Shown here: piece by piece, positions 1 through 5,537 of the stretch
Position numbering within the stretch: the first letter of the stretch is position 1
How the letters are laid out: each line of letters opens with the position of its first letter
Virus record (IMG/VR): IMGVR_UViG_2602041586_000008
Location: 1 to 5,537 of that record
Reading direction: 5' to 3' (one strand)
Source of the DNA: a virus
Lineage: Duplodnaviria; Heunggongvirae; Uroviricota; Caudoviricetes
DNA length: 5,537 nt
Made by a program: the position numbers and the translations under genes
Notes under the pieces: generated by a model
The model's input: the letters and a program-made list of their open reading frames with translations, nothing else
Database searches by the model: none
Told to the model about the DNA's origin: nothing

Positions 1-70
1 TGTGCCAACAGCGGACATTATAGATGGTATATGTAGAAAGTGAACATGCGTAGATTGTATGATTTAGCCG

Positions 71-880
71 TCACTTAATTATTGGATAACTCACACAAGT
101 ATGACCGTTGCTTATCGCATACATTTGGTTTCCCTTAAGATTTACAAATGGAAATGTCGTATACTCATAATTTATAGAGGTCATATTAAATGTAAGGAAT
201 TTATCTTCAAGTTCTAATTTTGTAGAGTGGGCAGGGTATGTTCCTTCATTTTTCATTGTGATAATAAAACCGATAGGAAAAAAATGTAAAGCACAAATAA
301 ATGCCACATGTCCTTCGTTCATAAATGCTACACTTTGAGCGGATATGTGCATTCTGTGTGGGTAAAACCAGTAGTAAATATCATGAGTTTCCTCAAAACT
401 TGAATTTTTACCCAAAACATAATCCTTTAAAGGTGTATAGAAGGGGCTATCTACGGGTTCTTTTTTACAATCTTCAACTGAAGTTGCTGATAGCACGTGC
501 CCAATCATAGCCTTAGTGAAAGATATGCTATCAAAAGGTATTCTAATGAATGGATATACATTCATACCATTCATATATCGACTTAACTGTTCTTTAAAGG
601 ACTTTGTTACATTTTCAATTGCAACATCGAGCCCACCTAATACCTTATTGTTACAGTGGCTGCAAATGGTTCTGAAATAAGAGCCATTTTTAGCATTTAA
701 TGGTTTAACTGGTTCCTGAATACCAAAAAATTCGCTAACTGTTTTCTGCAAAACAGGGCCTAAGGTTATGGCGCACTTTGGAGGAACATGATCTTTTGTG
801 AGCAAGCCATATTTCCCACAAATATTGCAATAACCTTCAGTAATGCCATTGTGCTTCCATCGTTCACTAATTTTCGTCAT
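71..880 (-). CDS. HNH/HNN-type nuclease-domain protein, 269 aa; N-terminal zinc-finger nuclease motif, C-terminal ~180 aa uncharacterised
   Basis: Complete ORF with ATG at 880..878 and a GAGGGA Shine-Dalgarno 6 nt upstream on the minus strand. The N-terminus carries CNICG...DHVPP...N...CSHCNNK, i.e. CxxC / DH / N / CxHCN, which fits the HNH (HNN-variant) beta-beta-alpha-metal fold. The C-terminal aromatic-rich region is not recognised. GC is visibly lower than in the phage core genes. Confidence 0.7.
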   Translation of the reverse strand: MTKISERWKHNGITEGYCNICGKYGLLTKDHVPPKCAITLGPVLQKTVSEFFGIQEPVKPLNAKNGSYFRTICSHCNNKVLGGLDVAIENVTKSFKEQLSRYMNGMNVYPFIRIPFDSISFTKAMIGHVLSATSVEDCKKEPVDSPFYTPLKDYVLGKNSSFEETHDIYYWFYPHRMHISAQSVAFMNEGHVAFICALHFFPIGFIITMKNEGTYPAHSTKLELEDKFLTFNMTSINYEYTTFPFVNLKGNQMYAISNGHTCVSYPIIK

Positions 881-1440
881 TTTTATTCCCTCAGTAGCAT
901 AAGCTATCTATACGTTTTTTAATCCTATCAAAGATACAACTTAACGTCAGGAAAATGATAGTGTTTATCTAAGTAATACAATTAACTTCAACGCGTGACA
1001 GTCTGCTTTTCGCTCAAAGCGGACTAGAAGGTTAGCTTGCGTCGGACTTGGCGTATTTAAAGAAGTGCTGGTGGTGACTGGTTGTTGTGTTCCATTTCTA
1101 CAGAATAAAATCACAGAAACTATACCCAATAGTTGTATTGAATCACTGACGAGACAGCTTCATATTTATCAGGACTGGTGTGCGTCTAATACAGGGGGTT
1201 GTCGTGCTGGTTCTCAAATGTGCGCTGGCTATTGCGGCTGTAATGGCAATTTATTGTCTTGCTGTTGTTCTTATGGAGCGGCTTTCTGATTGATTACATA
1301 CTGGCTAGAAAAAAGGTGTTACCTTGGTTTATCTTTGTCCGGCAAGGTGCGCTCATTAATCTTAAGTAAATTTATTGCTCAAGTATTCAGATTACTTCTT
1401 ATGGTTGAAGTCTCCTGTCAATGTAGAACCAATATATTTA

Positions 1441-1478
1441 CAAAAATGAGACCCGTCGGGGATAGCCCTGCCGGGTCT
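1441..1478 (-). terminator. Candidate intrinsic terminator for the YeaR-like gene
   Basis: 7-bp stem AGACCCG (1449-1455) / CGGGTCT (1472-1478) with a 16-nt loop. On the minus strand it is followed directly by ATTTTTG (plus 1441-1447), about 30 nt past the stop at 1508. The loop is large, so stability is uncertain. Confidence 0.45.
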
Positions 1479-1507
1479 GACTGTTAAAGCATTTTTAATA
1501 TGATCAT

Positions 1508-1846
1508 CTATTTTTTGGTGCTATAGACTTTTTCGCCCGAGAAGTCTGGAGCGACCCAAAAGTTAATATTAAACTGAGCATCATCGCTTAGTTCAACACG
1601 GTGCCAGTATTGTGGTGGGCTTGTTGCAAAAGCGCCAGCATTAATGACTACTTTTATCTCCGGTTCAGTAGCATTCTCATCAGTAAAACCATAATATGTT
1701 ACAGTGCCTTCCATTACGCACAACTGCCCAAAAACACCTGCTGCTGTATTATGATGTGTTAATAACGCTGAAGGTACGTTCTCTTTTGTGAAGAACGGAG
1801 TTGAGCGTTTGATTACCCAATCTTTAGGAATTCTCTTGTGTGTCAT
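1508..1846 (-). CDS. DUF1971 / YeaR-like small protein, 112 aa (TehB-C-terminal-like fold family)
   Basis: The ORF track gives 1508..1870, but the internal Met (MTHKRIPKD...) at 1846 is preceded by a perfect GAGGAGG Shine-Dalgarno (plus 1853-1859), so the start is placed at 1846. Motifs RSTPFF, VMEGTV.YYGF.DE..EP, AG.FA..PP..WH and FNINFWVAP match my recollection of E. coli YeaR (DUF1971). Confidence 0.8.
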   Translation of the reverse strand: MTHKRIPKDWVIKRSTPFFTKENVPSALLTHHNTAAGVFGQLCVMEGTVTYYGFTDENATEPEIKVVINAGAFATSPPQYWHRVELSDDAQFNINFWVAPDFSGEKVYSTKK

Positions 1847-1861
1847 AACCACCTCCTCAAA

Positions 1862-1884
1862 AACATGCATTATAAATGCGTGTT
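1862..1884. promoter_or_regulatory. NsrR-box-like 11-1-11 inverted repeat (candidate operator) over the -10 of the YeaR-like gene
   Basis: Plus strand reads AACATGCATTA-T-AAATGCGTGTT. Both halves approximate the NsrR half-site AAnATGCATTT as I remember it, 10/11 and 9/11. It lies 3-5 nt upstream of the Shine-Dalgarno and contains the -10 hexamer. Confidence 0.4.
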
Positions 1885-1901
1885 TTTGAGGGTTATGTCA
1901 A
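1869..1901 (-). promoter_or_regulatory. Sigma70-like promoter elements for the YeaR-like gene with an atypical 21-bp spacer
   Basis: On the minus strand there is a perfect TTGACA (plus 1896-1901) and a perfect TATAAT (plus 1869-1874), separated by 21 bp. That is longer than the usual 16-18 bp. The -10 is well placed relative to the SD and ATG (predicted start site near 1862). Confidence 0.35.
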
Positions 1902-2163
1902 GCTGTTATGAAACACATAATTGATATGTTGATTAGAGGAGAAGATATAATAAATATGGTTGTTTTTCGTATAACTATTTGTTTTACTTTTAGTTTATGC
2001 ATTCTGTGTGTTAGGAATAAGTTATTAAAGTTTAATCAAAAAATCTCGATGTAGTCCACATAGATTATTGTTACTGAACCTTATTGTGTGTATTAGTTGT
2101 GTTCTGAAATTTCAGCTTAATTATTTATGATGTATTTTTTAACGATAAATATTTTCCCAGGAT

Positions 2164-2214
2164 GCCTTTACTGTGTATATAAATAAATTATATACACATA
2201 AATAATGTAAAGGC
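2164..2214. repeat. Nested inverted repeat in an AT-rich intergenic region
   Basis: Inner perfect IR TGTGTATATAA (2172-2182) / TTATATACACA (2188-2198) with a 5-bp spacer. It is flanked by outer arms GCCTTTA (2164-2170) / TAAAGGC (2208-2214). Confidence 0.5.
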
Positions 2215-2573
2215 GTCCTTTTAGATATATCTTATCAAATGTTAATGACTTGAGTGGGAAATATGATTCCAGCAACTTATCATGTGGCTACTTTATAAAA
2301 ATAATGCCCATATAAAACAACAAGCGAAAAGGATTACGGATAAAAAAGGAGCGAGATGTGCGAACTTGTTATTTTCCATGTTTAACCACCTTAAATAATT
2401 GATGATGACGGGATGATTGCATCTGTAATGCTTTTATTGAAATGTTATGATAAAAAAGAACTTTTGCATAACATTAAAATGTAATTTATCTAATCGTTTT
2501 TAATAATAAATGTCGTATTTCTATCCTTGTACCAGCTATTTGATATGTAGTGTTTGTTCATGCTATGTGGGGC

Positions 2574-2601
2574 TTTACACCATAGCCAGTTTATTTATAC
2601 T
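2574..2601 (+). promoter_or_regulatory. Candidate sigma70 promoter for the nin-like operon
   Basis: TTTACA (2574-2579), 16-bp spacer, TATACT (2596-2601), about 60 nt upstream of the ATG at 2660. It overlaps an imperfect hairpin (GCTATG(T)GG ... CCATAGC, 2562-2586) followed by T-rich sequence, which could instead be a tR2-like terminator. Confidence 0.3.
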
Positions 2602-2659
2602 TTATTCGTCAGCCTGAACAACTGGCATCTGCTGCGCTGCGCCATCGAGAGATTGAGAA

Positions 2660-3259
2660 ATGGCGCATATACAACTGGTCAAACAAACCTCTTCTGGTTT
2701 ACTTCTCCCGGCGACGCCGGAGAGTTGCGATTTTTTGCATCAAATCAAAATAGGTGAGTGGATACACGCAGACTTTAAGCGTGTGCGTAACTACGCATTC
2801 CACAAGCGTTTTTTCAAACTCCTGCAACTGGGATTCGATTACTGGACTCCGGTCGGTGGGGCGATCACGCCTCGCGAACGAAAACTGGTATCGGGCTTCG
2901 TTGATTACCTGTGCGAATCAGTAGGTCGGGAACACACTCCAGCCCTGAGTGATGCCGCAGAGCAATACCTTAATACCGTTGCGACATGCAGAACCCGGGA
3001 TACGGCATTGCTAAAGTCGTTTGACGCTTTCCGCGAGTGGGTAACCATTCAGGCAGGATTTTACACCGAGTATATTTATCCTGATGGTAGTCGTGGGCGC
3101 AGGGCAAAATCTATCGCATTTGCGAACATGGACGAAACCGAGTTTCAGCAGGTTTATAAATCTGTACTGAATGTGCTGTGGAACTGGATCCTGTTCCGTA
3201 AATTTTCCTCTCCGGAGGAAGTCGAAAATGTGGCCGCACAGTTACTGGAGTTTGCGTAA
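2660..3259 (+). CDS. Lambdoid nin-region protein, 199 aa (DUF1367-like by memory and synteny)
   Basis: Complete ORF at about 50% GC. Its stop overlaps the next gene's start (TAATG at 3257-3261). Position is immediately upstream of a YbcO-like gene and a Q-like gene, as in many enterobacterial prophage nin regions. The family name is a recollection, not a search result. Confidence 0.8.
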   Translation: MAHIQLVKQTSSGLLLPATPESCDFLHQIKIGEWIHADFKRVRNYAFHKRFFKLLQLGFDYWTPVGGAITPRERKLVSGFVDYLCESVGREHTPALSDAAEQYLNTVATCRTRDTALLKSFDAFREWVTIQAGFYTEYIYPDGSRGRRAKSIAFANMDETEFQQVYKSVLNVLWNWILFRKFSSPEEVENVAAQLLEFA

Positions 3260-3549
3260 TGGTGGATTTACGTAAAGCGGCGCGGGGGCAGATGTGCACC
3301 GTCAGAATTCCTGGCTACTGCAATCACAATCCCGAAACATCTGTGCTGGCGCATTACAGGCTGTCGGGGACGTGCGGAACAGCGACAAAACCACACGATA
3401 TGCAGGCAGCGATTGCCTGTAGCTCATGCCACGATTTAATCGACGGGCGGGTAAAAACCAGCGATTACACCAAAGAAGAATTACGCCTGATGCATGCAGA
3501 AGGTGTTTTTCGCACACAAGAAATCTGGAGAAAGGAAGGTTATTTATGA
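3259..3549 (+). CDS. ybcO: YbcO-like (DUF1364) Cys-rich, likely zinc-binding phage protein, 96 aa; putative nuclease
   Basis: 96 aa, the same length as DLP12 YbcO. It has the MxDLRKAARG...C.VRIPG.CNxNPETSVLAH.R..G.CGT.TKP......IAC..CHD pattern with 5 Cys and His that I recall for YbcO. Translationally coupled on both sides (TAATG upstream, ATGA downstream). Confidence 0.75.
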   Translation: MVDLRKAARGQMCTVRIPGYCNHNPETSVLAHYRLSGTCGTATKPHDMQAAIACSSCHDLIDGRVKTSDYTKEELRLMHAEGVFRTQEIWRKEGYL

Positions 3550-4088
3550 TTTACCCAACAAATACAGGCAAAAGCGGGGAACACCTTCGTCTCACCACGC
3601 TGGAAAGTGTCTGGATTCAGGGAAAACTGCGCATGTGGGGGCGCTGGTCGTATATTGGCGGCGGTAAGACGGGAAATATGTTTAACCAGTTGCTGGCATC
3701 CAAAAAATTGACGAAAACAGCCGTCAATGAAGCCCTGCGCAGGATGAAAAAAGCGGGAATAGAGAAACCTGAGCTGGAAGCGTTTTTGCGAGAGATGATC
3801 AATGGCAAGCTAAAGACCTGGCTGGCGCATTGTACTGATGCAGAGGCGTTATGTATTGATAGAGTCATAAGTGAGGTGCTGGCAGAGCATCCTGGATTGA
3901 TTAGTGTCCTCCGGCAACGGTATGAAGGACGGGGGATGACTAAGCGCAAAATGGCTGAATTGCTAAATGATGCACATCCTGAGTGGTGTTTTAGCACATG
4001 CGAAAAGCGAATTGCTAATTGGTTGGCTGTTGCTGAGTATGCCCTATATATTCCCATGCGAGAATCATTTGCTCAAAAAATAGCTTGA
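3546..4088 (+). CDS. Putative late-gene antiterminator, Q-like, 180 aa
   Basis: Start placed at the internal ATG 3546, which has an AAGGAAGG Shine-Dalgarno 5 nt upstream and overlaps the YbcO-like stop as ATGA. The longer ORF from 3426 would overlap the YbcO-like gene by 124 nt with an Arg-rich N-terminus. It is the last nin-side gene before a hairpin/terminator region and the lysis gene. It has four Cys (C-x6-C ... C-x3-C). The function is assigned by synteny; the sequence family is not confirmed. Confidence 0.6.
   Translation: MIYPTNTGKSGEHLRLTTLESVWIQGKLRMWGRWSYIGGGKTGNMFNQLLASKKLTKTAVNEALRRMKKAGIEKPELEAFLREMINGKLKTWLAHCTDAEALCIDRVISEVLAEHPGLISVLRQRYEGRGMTKRKMAELLNDAHPEWCFSTCEKRIANWLAVAEYALYIPMRESFAQKIA
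4023..4052 (+). promoter_or_regulatory. Candidate late promoter (PR'-like) inside the 3' end of the Q-like gene
   Basis: TTGGCT (4023-4028), 16-18 bp spacer, TATATA/TATATT (4045-4052). An alternative is TTGATT (4085-4090), 17 bp, TGcTTCAAT (4105-4113). Neither is compelling. Confidence 0.2.
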
Positions 4089-4117
4089 TTTTTTACGCGT
4101 AAACTGCTTCAATTCCG

Positions 4118-4134
4118 GCTTTGCTTCGCAAAGC
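4118..4134. repeat. Perfect inverted repeat GCTTTGC-TTC-GCAAAGC
   Basis: 7-bp arms with a 3-nt loop, 30 bp after the Q-like stop. No T-run follows, so it is not a terminator by itself. It could be a protein-binding site or an RNA hairpin in the late leader. Confidence 0.5.
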
Positions 4135-4172
4135 TGTATCGCGAGGCGAACCAAGCGCATGAACTTTACCAG

Positions 4173-4200
4173 AACCCGCCATTGAGCGGGTTTTGTTGTT
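4173..4200 (+). terminator. tR'-like intrinsic terminator downstream of the Q-like gene
   Basis: Stem AACCCGC (4173-4179) / GCGGGTT (4186-4192), 6-nt loop, followed by TTTGTTGTTT. Confidence 0.55.
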
Positions 4201-4276
4201 TCTGGTACTGGCGAACCTGATGTTTCATTTCTGGAACGAGATTCCTGGCGGAATACCTAGAATCGAGACATTCTGG
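4200..4276 (+). repeat. Direct repeats of TTCTGG (x3) plus one TTCCTGG in the leader of the membrane-protein gene
   Basis: TTCTGG at 4200-4205, 4229-4234 and 4271-4276, and TTCCTGG at 4242-4248, all between the tR'-like terminator and the ATG at 4311. Confidence 0.35.
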
Positions 4277-4310
4277 TAAAATTGTTTTCAGTACAGGATG
4301 TGGAGGTGAG

Positions 4311-4880
4311 ATGAGAGAACTACCTAAAGATTATTTTTTAGGAGTAGATGATGAGCTCGTCGATTATCTTGAAAAACAAGGGGAAGAGACGATACGAGAG
4401 ATTCATCTTTCTAACAAAACCAATGTTGAGAATGGATACAAACTTCTGAACATTCAGATTGTTGGAATTGGTTCATCTTTTTTATTGCTGACACAGAAAA
4501 CTAATTTCGATTTTCTCACCGCCGGAATTACCACATTTACATTACTATGGACATGGTGCGCCATTTACTTGATATGTACTGGTTTATCTGTGAAGGTTAG
4601 GGGCCTGATCAATGCCCCTCCTGATCATCTATATCATGAAAAATATAAGGATATGGAGCCCTCGAGCTTTAAAATATTCGCTGATGCAGGATATTTAGGA
4701 CCTGATAAGTTATTGCCGCTTATACGAAGGTATCGCCTTGTTGACTTGAGTGATACAGCAAGAGAGTTACTGTTGGAAAATGAGAAAATCCGCACGAGTC
4801 TCGATAAAGCAAGGATGTATACCATCCTTGCTCCGGTAGCGGCGATGTTTATCTCGGCTGTTTTTTTATATGTTCAATGA
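4311..4880 (+). CDS. Low-GC predicted membrane protein, 189 aa, about 3 TM helices; accessory gene between Q and holin
   Basis: Complete ORF with GGAGG just upstream, though the spacer is short. Hydrophobic segments sit near aa 45-62 and 68-92 and at the C-terminus (MYTILAPVAAMFISAVFLYVQ), with soluble N-terminal and central regions. It is visibly more AT-rich than the flanking Q-like and holin genes. No family recognised. Confidence 0.7.
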   Translation: MRELPKDYFLGVDDELVDYLEKQGEETIREIHLSNKTNVENGYKLLNIQIVGIGSSFLLLTQKTNFDFLTAGITTFTLLWTWCAIYLICTGLSVKVRGLINAPPDHLYHEKYKDMEPSSFKIFADAGYLGPDKLLPLIRRYRLVDLSDTARELLLENEKIRTSLDKARMYTILAPVAAMFISAVFLYVQ

Positions 4881-5010
4881 CTGAGTCGGCAGAATCTCCA
4901 ACAAAAACACGACGTGTAGCAAAGTCTGTAGTACTTTGTGTTGGAGTTGGTTTTGGTGCCACGGGTTGCTGAGGTTTATTTTCATCTTGTGGCTTGTTTT
5001 TTTCAGACAT
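4849..5010 (-). CDS. Small hydrophilic Pro/Lys/Gln-rich protein, 53 aa (hypothetical)
   Basis: Internal ATG at 5010 of the 130-aa minus ORF, with a strong AAGAGGA Shine-Dalgarno 5 nt upstream. Sequence MSEKNKPQDENKPQQPVAPKPTPTQSTTDFATRRVFVGDSADSVIEHIKKQPR. Its 3' end overlaps the membrane-protein gene by 32 bp in convergent orientation. It could equally be non-coding antisense sequence. Confidence 0.4.
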   Translation of the reverse strand: MSEKNKPQDENKPQQPVAPKPTPTQSTTDFATRRVFVGDSADSVIEHIKKQPR

Positions 5011-5103
5011 AAAAATCCTCTTTGTTTGAATTGTTACTTTTGGCGATTTAACGATATCAAACACGAGTATATACCGCCAGAAGCTTAATCTGGCACTCCA
5101 TCT

Positions 5104-5130
5104 GACCCCGGCATGTCCCGGGGCTTTTTC
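5104..5130 (+). terminator. Intrinsic terminator upstream of the holin gene
   Basis: GC-only stem CCCCGG (5106-5111) / CCGGGG (5118-5123) with loop CATGTC, followed by CTTTTTC. Plus-strand only; there is no T-run on the other side. Confidence 0.6.
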
Positions 5131-5227
5131 GTTGTTAGGCTCCGGAAACATCCTCGACTTCTTGTTAGCAAGCCTGAGAGCCTGAATCTTACACTTAGCA
5201 CCATCCGAACTCTCGGAGGTGAGGCTT

Positions 5228-5537
5228 ATGAAAATGCACAATGCCCCTCATTCCTGGCCTGACTTACTGGAACTCTTACAAAGTTGGTGGCGTGGAGATA
5301 CGCCGCTGGGTGCAGTGGTTATGTCAATTATTATGGCTGGTTTGCGCATTGCCTATTTTGGCGGTGGCGGCGGCTGGAAACGAAAAACGCTTGAGATTCT
5401 GCTTTGTGGTGCTCTGACGCTGACCTTTGCATCCGCGCTTGAGTATGTCGGATGGCCTAAATCACTTTCTGTTGCCATTGGTGGTGGGGTGGGGCTGAAG
5501 TGGTTTACTGAATTTGGCCACCTGAACAGAGGTGATA
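5228..5537 (+). CDS. Lambda-S-like class I holin with MKM dual start (antiholin/holin), 3' truncated by the window edge
   Basis: GGAGGT Shine-Dalgarno at 5215-5220 and ATG at 5228. Translation MKMHNAPHSWPDLLELL...GGGGGWKRKTLEILLCGALTLTFASALEYVGW... has the Met-Lys-Met dual-start signature and hydrophobic layout of lambda S. The reading frame runs open to the window end (103 codons). Confidence 0.8.
   Translation, partial: MKMHNAPHSWPDLLELLQSWWRGDTPLGAVVMSIIMAGLRIAYFGGGGGWKRKTLEILLCGALTLTFASALEYVGWPKSLSVAIGGGVGLKWFTEFGHLNRGD

Follow-up and report, generated by a model that had tools for sequence, protein, structure and literature searches.

What is encoded by the solitary, AT-rich gene that faces against its phage neighbors near the left end of IMG/VR virus record IMGVR_UViG_2602041586_000008, and what might it do for the element that carries it? 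The DNA analyzed here (the window, i.e., the whole stretch of 5,537 nucleotides (nt), positions 1 to 5,537 of that record) is a 100% match to Escherichia coli isolate AB66 (NZ_OZ547461), where it is situated in a Rac-type lambdoid prophage. The gene in question, at 71-880, codes for a protein of 269 amino acids (aa), which is best described, from its motif, its family alignment and its predicted structure, as a divergent, split zinc-finger HNH (H-N-N) nuclease of the His-Me finger type. For its role, the favored reading, to which roughly even chances are given, is that of a stand-alone defense or anti-mobile-element nuclease, whose specificity or gating would be provided by its C-terminal domain.

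The gene and its protein family

The open reading frame (ORF) at 71-880 is the sole long one of its region. It opens with ATG, has its stop codon at 71-73 and lies on the strand opposite to the flanking phage operon, with a guanine-plus-cytosine (GC) content of 0.349 compared to 0.486 in the nin/Q genes (2660-4088). Comparison with the 94.8%-identical allele of a P2 prophage (42 nt and 14 aa differences) gives a ratio of nonsynonymous to synonymous substitution rates (dN/dS) of 0.14; the sequence is thus that of a protein under purifying selection, and the gene is real and not a chance ORF. Its promoter must fall in 881-966, the stretch common to most P2-like copies. The search for a sigma-70 promoter of the gene returned weak sigma-70-like matches only, none of them convincing, and no convincing intrinsic terminator was found either.

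A word-indexed search retrieved 93 full-length homologs of 226-315 aa (most of 268-280 aa), none of which carries a Pfam domain. An exhaustive profile search extended the family to at least 1,780 representative clusters (50% identity) at E<=1e-3, 349 of them at E<=1e-30, and nearly all of these have about 270 aa and align over their full length. The matching genomes belong to the Gamma- and Betaproteobacteria, Cyanobacteria, Nitrospirota, Planctomycetota, Bacteroidota, Firmicutes and one bacterium of the candidate phyla radiation (CPR). Additional domains in the longer members (P0116, P0120, P0136 and P0142) were considered and dismissed, as their Arg/Pro-rich N-terminal extensions resemble mis-called starts in GC-rich genomes. 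Sequence searches of the 269-aa protein against Pfam, NCBIfam, PADLOC and the PDB gave nothing significant, and a literature search by protein accession found no paper on the protein.

In their sources, the 93 homologs are named solely "chaperonin", "metal-binding protein" or "hypothetical". The Prokaryotic Genome Annotation Pipeline (PGAP) likewise names the product of 71-880 "chaperonin", both in the source genome (WP_171867619.1) and for the copies in other genomes and plasmids (WP_000161640.1). A chaperonin identity was rejected as unsupported: neither Pfam nor NCBIfam provides a match, and the Foldseek rows to TRAP1 and EspG are non-significant (E >= 0.15). The label, which PGAP and UniRef have spread over many family members, is probably an annotation error, and the name "metal-binding protein" is likewise without support.

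An HNH-like head joined to an unrecognized domain

The sequence-only reading of this locus had described a low-GC gene with a CxxC...DH...N...CxHCN motif in its first ~80 residues, and had interpreted it as an HNH nuclease head fused to an unrecognized C-terminal domain. Both the motif and the base composition (35% against 49% GC) are borne out by direct reading of the sequence, in which the motif takes the form C18-x2-C21, D30-H31-V-P-P, N65-G66 and C73-x2-C76-N77. Conservation was assessed in 111 family members, each only 19-44% identical to the query. Ten positions (C18, C21, H31, C73, C76, N77, G127, W171, P202 and P244) are invariant in all 111, and a further ten (G16, L27, D30, P33, P34, L81, G82, D85, H128 and A131) are at least 90% conserved.

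The AlphaFold2 (AF2) model built with the family alignment (predicted local distance difference test, pLDDT, 86.5; predicted template modeling score, pTM, 0.88) shows a β-strand at 24-32 ending in D30-H31, another at 67-73, and a long helix at 74-103 which opens with C76-N77. Between the two strands, an insertion of ~34 residues (33-66, with a helix at 42-51) splits the HNH motif. H31, at the end of β1 after D30, and N77, at the start of the helix, thus stand where the residues of a His-Me finger are expected, and the predicted topology is that of a ββα-metal fold with a Cys4 zinc site, interrupted between its strands by the inserted segment.

In a profile search, whose failure the sequence-only reading had named as a refutation of the motif, the window protein itself does not reach significance as an HNH domain: it scores E=0.29 with Pfam HNH_5 (PF14279), at 11.6 bits against a cutoff of 27.5, and over profile positions 1-21 only. 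Across the family, HNH_5 matches 61 of the 111 members at E<=0.1 (best 2.3e-6), Endonuclease_7 matches five, and no other family recurs; among ten members inspected singly there were three HNH_5 matches, each of them incomplete and short of the gathering score. Depending on the member, the match covers either the first half of the 56-position profile (1-21, CxxC...DH) or the second (28-53, N...CxxCN), which is the pattern expected from an insertion that splits the domain. Alignment by hhalign placed the family on the HNH region of E. coli McrA (201-266, P=0.015), and the alignment with YbcO was uninformative. The divergent His-Me finger description is adopted because of the invariant motif, the HNH_5 matches within the family, the AF2 topology and the McrA alignment. 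The HNH head of the sequence-only reading is therefore retained for the family, on its invariant residues and predicted topology, and not on the score of the window protein.

The C-terminal part, an alpha/beta domain predicted at residues 104-269, is indeed of unrecognized fold. Its invariant or near-invariant residues are G127-H128, W171, Y173, P202 and P244. No recognizable modified-base reader domain (SRA, EVE/PUA, McrA-N, etc.) was found in it, and NUMOD, IENR1 and helix-turn-helix (HTH) modules had no Pfam match, neither in the window protein nor among the 19 families matched by the 111 members.

A solitary gene on a hairpin-bounded cassette

In 78 loci from many phyla, no conserved neighbor was found within four genes on either side, and only recombinases and transposases recur. 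The DNA shared between copies extends from about window position -7/1 to 966/1024, and the mobile unit of ~1 kb consists of the gene with ~120 bp on its 5' side and ~70 bp on its 3' side; the cassette measures 1,032 bp and has no space for a second gene. It occurs at 99-100% nt identity in lambdoid prophages, in a P2-like Z/fun slot and in modules of plasmids with the insertion sequence (IS) IS26, while most P2-like copies are ~95% identical and have the left hairpin only. Among 5,426 complete E. coli genomes, 141 carry the gene (120 chromosomal and 29 plasmid places), 122 of them with at least 99% nt identity. Conjugative plasmids of Escherichia, Klebsiella and Shigella encode the identical protein, as do two Enterobacter records. 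Its phage carriers are three of 50,697 phage records, P2-like or prophage only, and 50 IMG/VR contigs, which are of prophage size.

The gene was seen in four contexts: (a) in Rac-type prophages it follows the DUF977 gene; (b) in Qin-type lambdoid prophages it lies between the DUF977 gene and hokD; (c) in P2-like phages and prophages it occupies the Z/fun slot, between the tail-fiber-assembly and sheath genes; and (d) on plasmids and chromosomes it belongs to a betT–DUF2254–integrase–gene–IS26 module. Because the 1-kb cassette recurs at 99-100% nt identity in unrelated backbones, its independent acquisition, formerly suggested from AT-richness and orientation, is strongly supported by these comparisons.

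The cassette is bounded by two short palindromes (Table 1). The left hairpin begins 8 nt before the window and 72 nt downstream of the DUF977 gene, and its full copy is at 11993-12016 of the source locus (L001); further hairpins are located at 4512 and 8001 of L002, 5923 of L088 and 6857 of L084, and in the IMG/VR loci L096-L175. The two hairpins are also present in Rac prophages with other cargo, whose sequences cease to match the window exactly at 19 and 1001. The left-hairpin pattern appears in 117 IMG/VR contigs, in 80 of which its surroundings were examined: in 49 of the 80 it lies 72-101 nt after a DUF977 gene, and in about 18 it lies 53-65 nt after a P2-type tail-fiber-assembly gene. 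A right-type hairpin then follows at 395, 1008, 1186, 1216, 1250, 1601, 2146, 2216, 2489, 3270, 4792 or 5428 nt. At least 12 different cargos (0.4-5.4 kb) are enclosed by such hairpin pairs, without any HNH gene in the unrelated ones, and the identical 1,032-bp HNH cassette is found in lambdoid as well as P2-like contigs.

In the IS26/integrase plasmid module, the right hairpin is retained and the left one is reduced to its 3' part. In other prophages, hairpins are missing around family members of <=84% identity. Neither palindrome has a T-tail, and they are therefore not plain terminators. The possibility that the hairpins are a target of the HNH family was rejected, as other cargos have them and diverged family members do not, so that the boundaries are a property of the cassette or slot system rather than of the protein. 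The hairpin pair looks like a cassette-exchange site system.

The defense-hotspot context

The alternative cargos of the lambdoid slot (from the DUF977 gene to window position ~1001) were read in other E. coli genomes (L002 and L089-L092). They comprise AbiH with WP_000982358.1; WP_014639476.1 with a partner protein; a PD-T7-3 homolog; PDC-S39; and, in NZ_CP126952, a combination of TetR, adenosine deaminase, a HAM1-like NTP pyrophosphatase and a ThsA-like SIR2 protein, for which no complete known system was matched. WP_000982358.1 is the validated system DS-37, and WP_014639476.1 (with WP_000354965.1) is the validated system DS-33 (DefensePredictor, PMC13092281 Table S6). Judging from these cargos, the lambdoid slot that separates the DUF977 gene from the nin region is a defense hotspot, and the P2 Z/fun slot is a documented (second) defense locus or hotspot (PMC9519451; bioRxiv 2024.10.15.618418).

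Paralogs at 60-80% nt identity to the window gene are present in a further 88 E. coli genomes. Two full-length paralogs stand beside defense genes: WP_001609855.1 (53% aa identity) adjoins the validated DS-13 and a SMODS+SLATT pair, and WP_187183634.1 (51% aa identity) adjoins SMODS+SLATT, a recombinase and a KAP NTPase. In distant taxa, the neighbors within two genes on either side include, in a survey made without a control set, full-length Dsr1, PDC-S73, a CBASS cyclase with an exonuclease effector, AbiD, HerA and type IIG restriction-modification enzymes. DefensePredictor log-odds for the paralogs are 7.5-8.4, and they are labelled 'predicted novel defense gene' (PMC13092281).

Possible roles of the protein

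From these observations we infer nuclease activity, a role of the C-terminal domain and a defense phenotype. In the favored reading, the gene would be the sole cargo of a mobile cassette of ~1 kb in a defense-gene hotspot of a Rac-type prophage, and its product would shield the lysogen or plasmid host against other phages or mobile DNA. Cutting of nucleic acid would fall to the N-terminal, Zn-stabilized HNH center (D30/H31/N77), while the tightly packed C-terminal domain (H128, W171, Y173, P202 and P244) would supply target or trigger specificity and thereby spare the host, which lacks a partner methylase, antitoxin or immunity gene. Such specificity may be achieved by the reading of a non-self DNA feature, as in Type IV enzymes like McrA, or by gating through a phage cue. 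A bolder proposal, which we consider quite unlikely, is that of a new class of one-protein immune nucleases, in which a previously unseen C-terminal fold would license the split HNH center on sensing either a cue specific to phages or a non-canonical feature of DNA, and in which hairpin-bounded, integron-like exchange would move defense genes among P2-like phages, lambdoid phages and conjugative plasmids.

Several observations weigh against a defense role. A function has been demonstrated in none of the family members, the PADLOC-DB 2.0 models gave no family at E<=1 with the window protein, and the hotspots hold non-defense cargo too, such as a cassette with a porin, a channel and a sulfatase. 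Moreover, WP_001609855.1 (designated PDP1) was cloned and assayed with 24 coliphages, with the outcome defensive = FALSE (PMC13092281 Table S6), and the defense role of the family is therefore argued from context. In that study 94 units were cloned and 55% of the tested units were negative (PMC13092281), so that the PDP1 result leaves room for a narrower specificity. The phage-defense nuclease envisaged by the sequence-only reading consequently fits the context of validated defense hotspots, and the only paralog tested gave no protection.

The product may instead be an accessory ("moron") protein, either a nuclease or a derivative of one, that serves some purpose besides anti-phage defense, e.g., interference with competing plasmids or satellites, toxin-like addiction for the benefit of the carrier, or DNA processing that benefits the prophage. 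This account, which is possible but unlikely, agrees with the frequent location of the gene on conjugative plasmids, adjoining IS26 and integrase genes, with the negative phage-defense test of PDP1 and with hotspot cargo that is not exclusively defensive. Yet classic addiction would call for a partner antitoxin or immunity gene, which is absent, and the neighbors and alternative cargos are overwhelmingly of the defense type, with high DefensePredictor log-odds. It is improbable that the protein is no nuclease at all, and that CxxC...CxxC forms a structural zinc ribbon in a protein which is non-catalytic or differently catalytic. The window protein is indeed under all HNH profile thresholds and the database names make no nuclease claim, but a structural ribbon would not require H31 and N77 to be invariant, and D30 to be at least 90% conserved, in exact HNH register; HNH_5 is also by far the most frequent Pfam match across the family, and the competing chaperonin identity is unsupported.

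The layout of the protein had further been likened to that of a free-standing HNH homing endonuclease, which would cut a cognate site in cassette-free phages and spread by recombinational repair. Such an enzyme would account for an HNH-like head with a separate C-terminal domain, for sporadic presence at a fixed intergenic site of related phages and for the AT-rich composition. However, the same cassette resides in at least four unrelated backbones which have no target gene in common, and the anticipated empty site in phages lacking the gene did not materialize, since cassette-free genomes show other cargo between the same hairpins. The same boundaries are used by at least 12 unrelated cargos without an HNH gene, and mobility is therefore not specified by the HNH protein. 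Diverged members are found without hairpins in chromosomal islands across many phyla, the carriers are temperate phages and prophages only, with no lytic phage genomes among them, and NUMOD, IENR or HTH modules are absent from the protein. Homing is thus very improbable, and the stand-alone defense or anti-mobile-element nuclease is the reading that we prefer.

Other features of the window

In the prophage, the slot of the gene comes after the replication module, behind the DUF977 gene, and before the nin/Q region. Upstream of the cassette, the prophage carries intR, recET, kilR, sieB, repressor genes, ydaU/ydaV, a DUF1627 gene and the DUF977 gene; after 71-880 there follow a TehB-like DUF1971 gene, DUF1367, YbcO/DUF1364, a DUF1133 Q-like gene, a 189-aa membrane protein, a holin and then a truncating IS element. 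In the source genome, ISEc52 truncates the prophage immediately behind the holin and is followed by sitABCD (L001 17568-22231, just beyond the right end of the window), and IS2 disrupts int/xis, leaving the Rac element as a defective remnant with the cassette still intact.

Table 1. Coordinates of the cassette and of other features, numbered from the first nucleotide of the window
Feature	Position	Strand	Description
Left boundary hairpin	-8..16 (1..16 in the window, the 3' two-thirds)	.	24-nt palindrome, GTCCGC-TTTGTGCCAACA-GCGGAC (GTCCGCTNTGTGCCAANAGCGGAC)
Coding sequence	71..880	-	269 aa; member of an uncharacterized ~270-aa family; PHROG 21495
C-terminal alpha/beta domain, unrecognized fold (predicted)	74..571	-	residues 104-269
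Zn-finger HNH-like (ββα-Me) core (predicted)	641..838	-	residues 15-80; predicted Zn ligands C18/C21 and C73/C76
5' region traveling with the cassette	881..1000	-	GAGGG ribosome-binding site (Shine-Dalgarno) at 888-892
Right boundary hairpin	1001..1024	.	24-nt palindrome, GTCTGC-TTTTCGCTCAAA-GCGGAC (...TCGCTCAAAGCRGAC)
Cysteine-rich ORF	1065..1289	+	74 aa; GTG start
TehB-like DUF1971 gene	1508..1870	-	Pfam E 2.6e-26
Low-GC stretch	1871..2659		~790 bp; GC 25-30%
Predicted membrane protein gene	4311..4880	+	189 aa; PHROG 11870

The predicted membrane protein has no Pfam or PADLOC match, and its gene, flanked by the Q-like DUF1133 gene and the holin, takes up the place downstream of Q that is classic for morons. 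The DUF1971 gene, antisense to the phage operon, codes for the N-terminal, non-methyltransferase part of TehB only, and is kept in many Rac-type prophages which share window 1001-5498. The low-GC stretch between it and DUF1367, which could be a regulatory or H-NS-type region, contains no ORF of at least 60 aa, no annotated feature and no Rfam match, and an Rfam scan of the window as a whole gave no real match. The 74-aa ORF is unusually rich in cysteine (…CAGYCGCNGNLLSCCCSYG…) and lacks a PGAP annotation; terminator-like hairpins at 1228-1247 and 1264-1282 overlap its 3' end, and it may be non-coding.

Comparison with known systems

If active, the protein would be a very compact, self-contained nuclease which tells self from non-self by its C-terminal domain. 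Its family is broad, with members in Proteobacteria, Cyanobacteria, Firmicutes and CPR bacteria and a total of at least 1,780 sequence clusters, and probably goes mis-named as "chaperonin" in thousands of records. The lambdoid slot behaves like the P2 hotspots, with the same boundary hairpins, and may offer a handle on the swapping of defense cargo between unrelated temperate phages and plasmids.

With respect to the mobility of the cassette, stem-loop repeats reportedly flank foreign ORFs in the Z/fun region of P2, and the present hairpins may be the same stem-loops. Those ORFs resemble the present case in that cargo of the tail-fiber/sheath slot lies between short conserved palindromes, suggesting site-specific cassette exchange, whereas the present hairpins also bound the lambdoid Rac/Qin-type hotspot and occur at the plasmid/IS26 module. 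Homing endonucleases of the I-HmuI or mob type likewise are small HNH-containing ORFs of foreign composition inserted between phage genes, but the present family has no DNA-binding modules, no constant target gene and no lytic-phage carriage, and its cassette ends are common to unrelated cargos.

Within its own family, the window protein shares with PDP1 and WP_187183634.1 the organization as a single gene in defense islands, yet these are other alleles, which reside in chromosomal island loci instead of a hairpin cassette. In the wider His-Me finger superfamily, the closest register is that of Pfam HNH_5, CxxC...DH...N...CxxC(H/N), although the present family is captured by no curated model. 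EcoKMcrA and the other single-chain Type IV HNH enzymes provide a further parallel, being solitary prophage-borne genes without a methylase, in which a Cys4 zinc-finger HNH is combined with another domain as the presumed source of specificity. The arrangement nevertheless differs, in that the HNH is C-terminal in McrA and N-terminal in the present protein, where the HNH core is split by the ~34-aa insertion and ends in N instead of H, and where the C-terminal domain resembles neither the McrA reader domain nor SRA/EVE-type folds.
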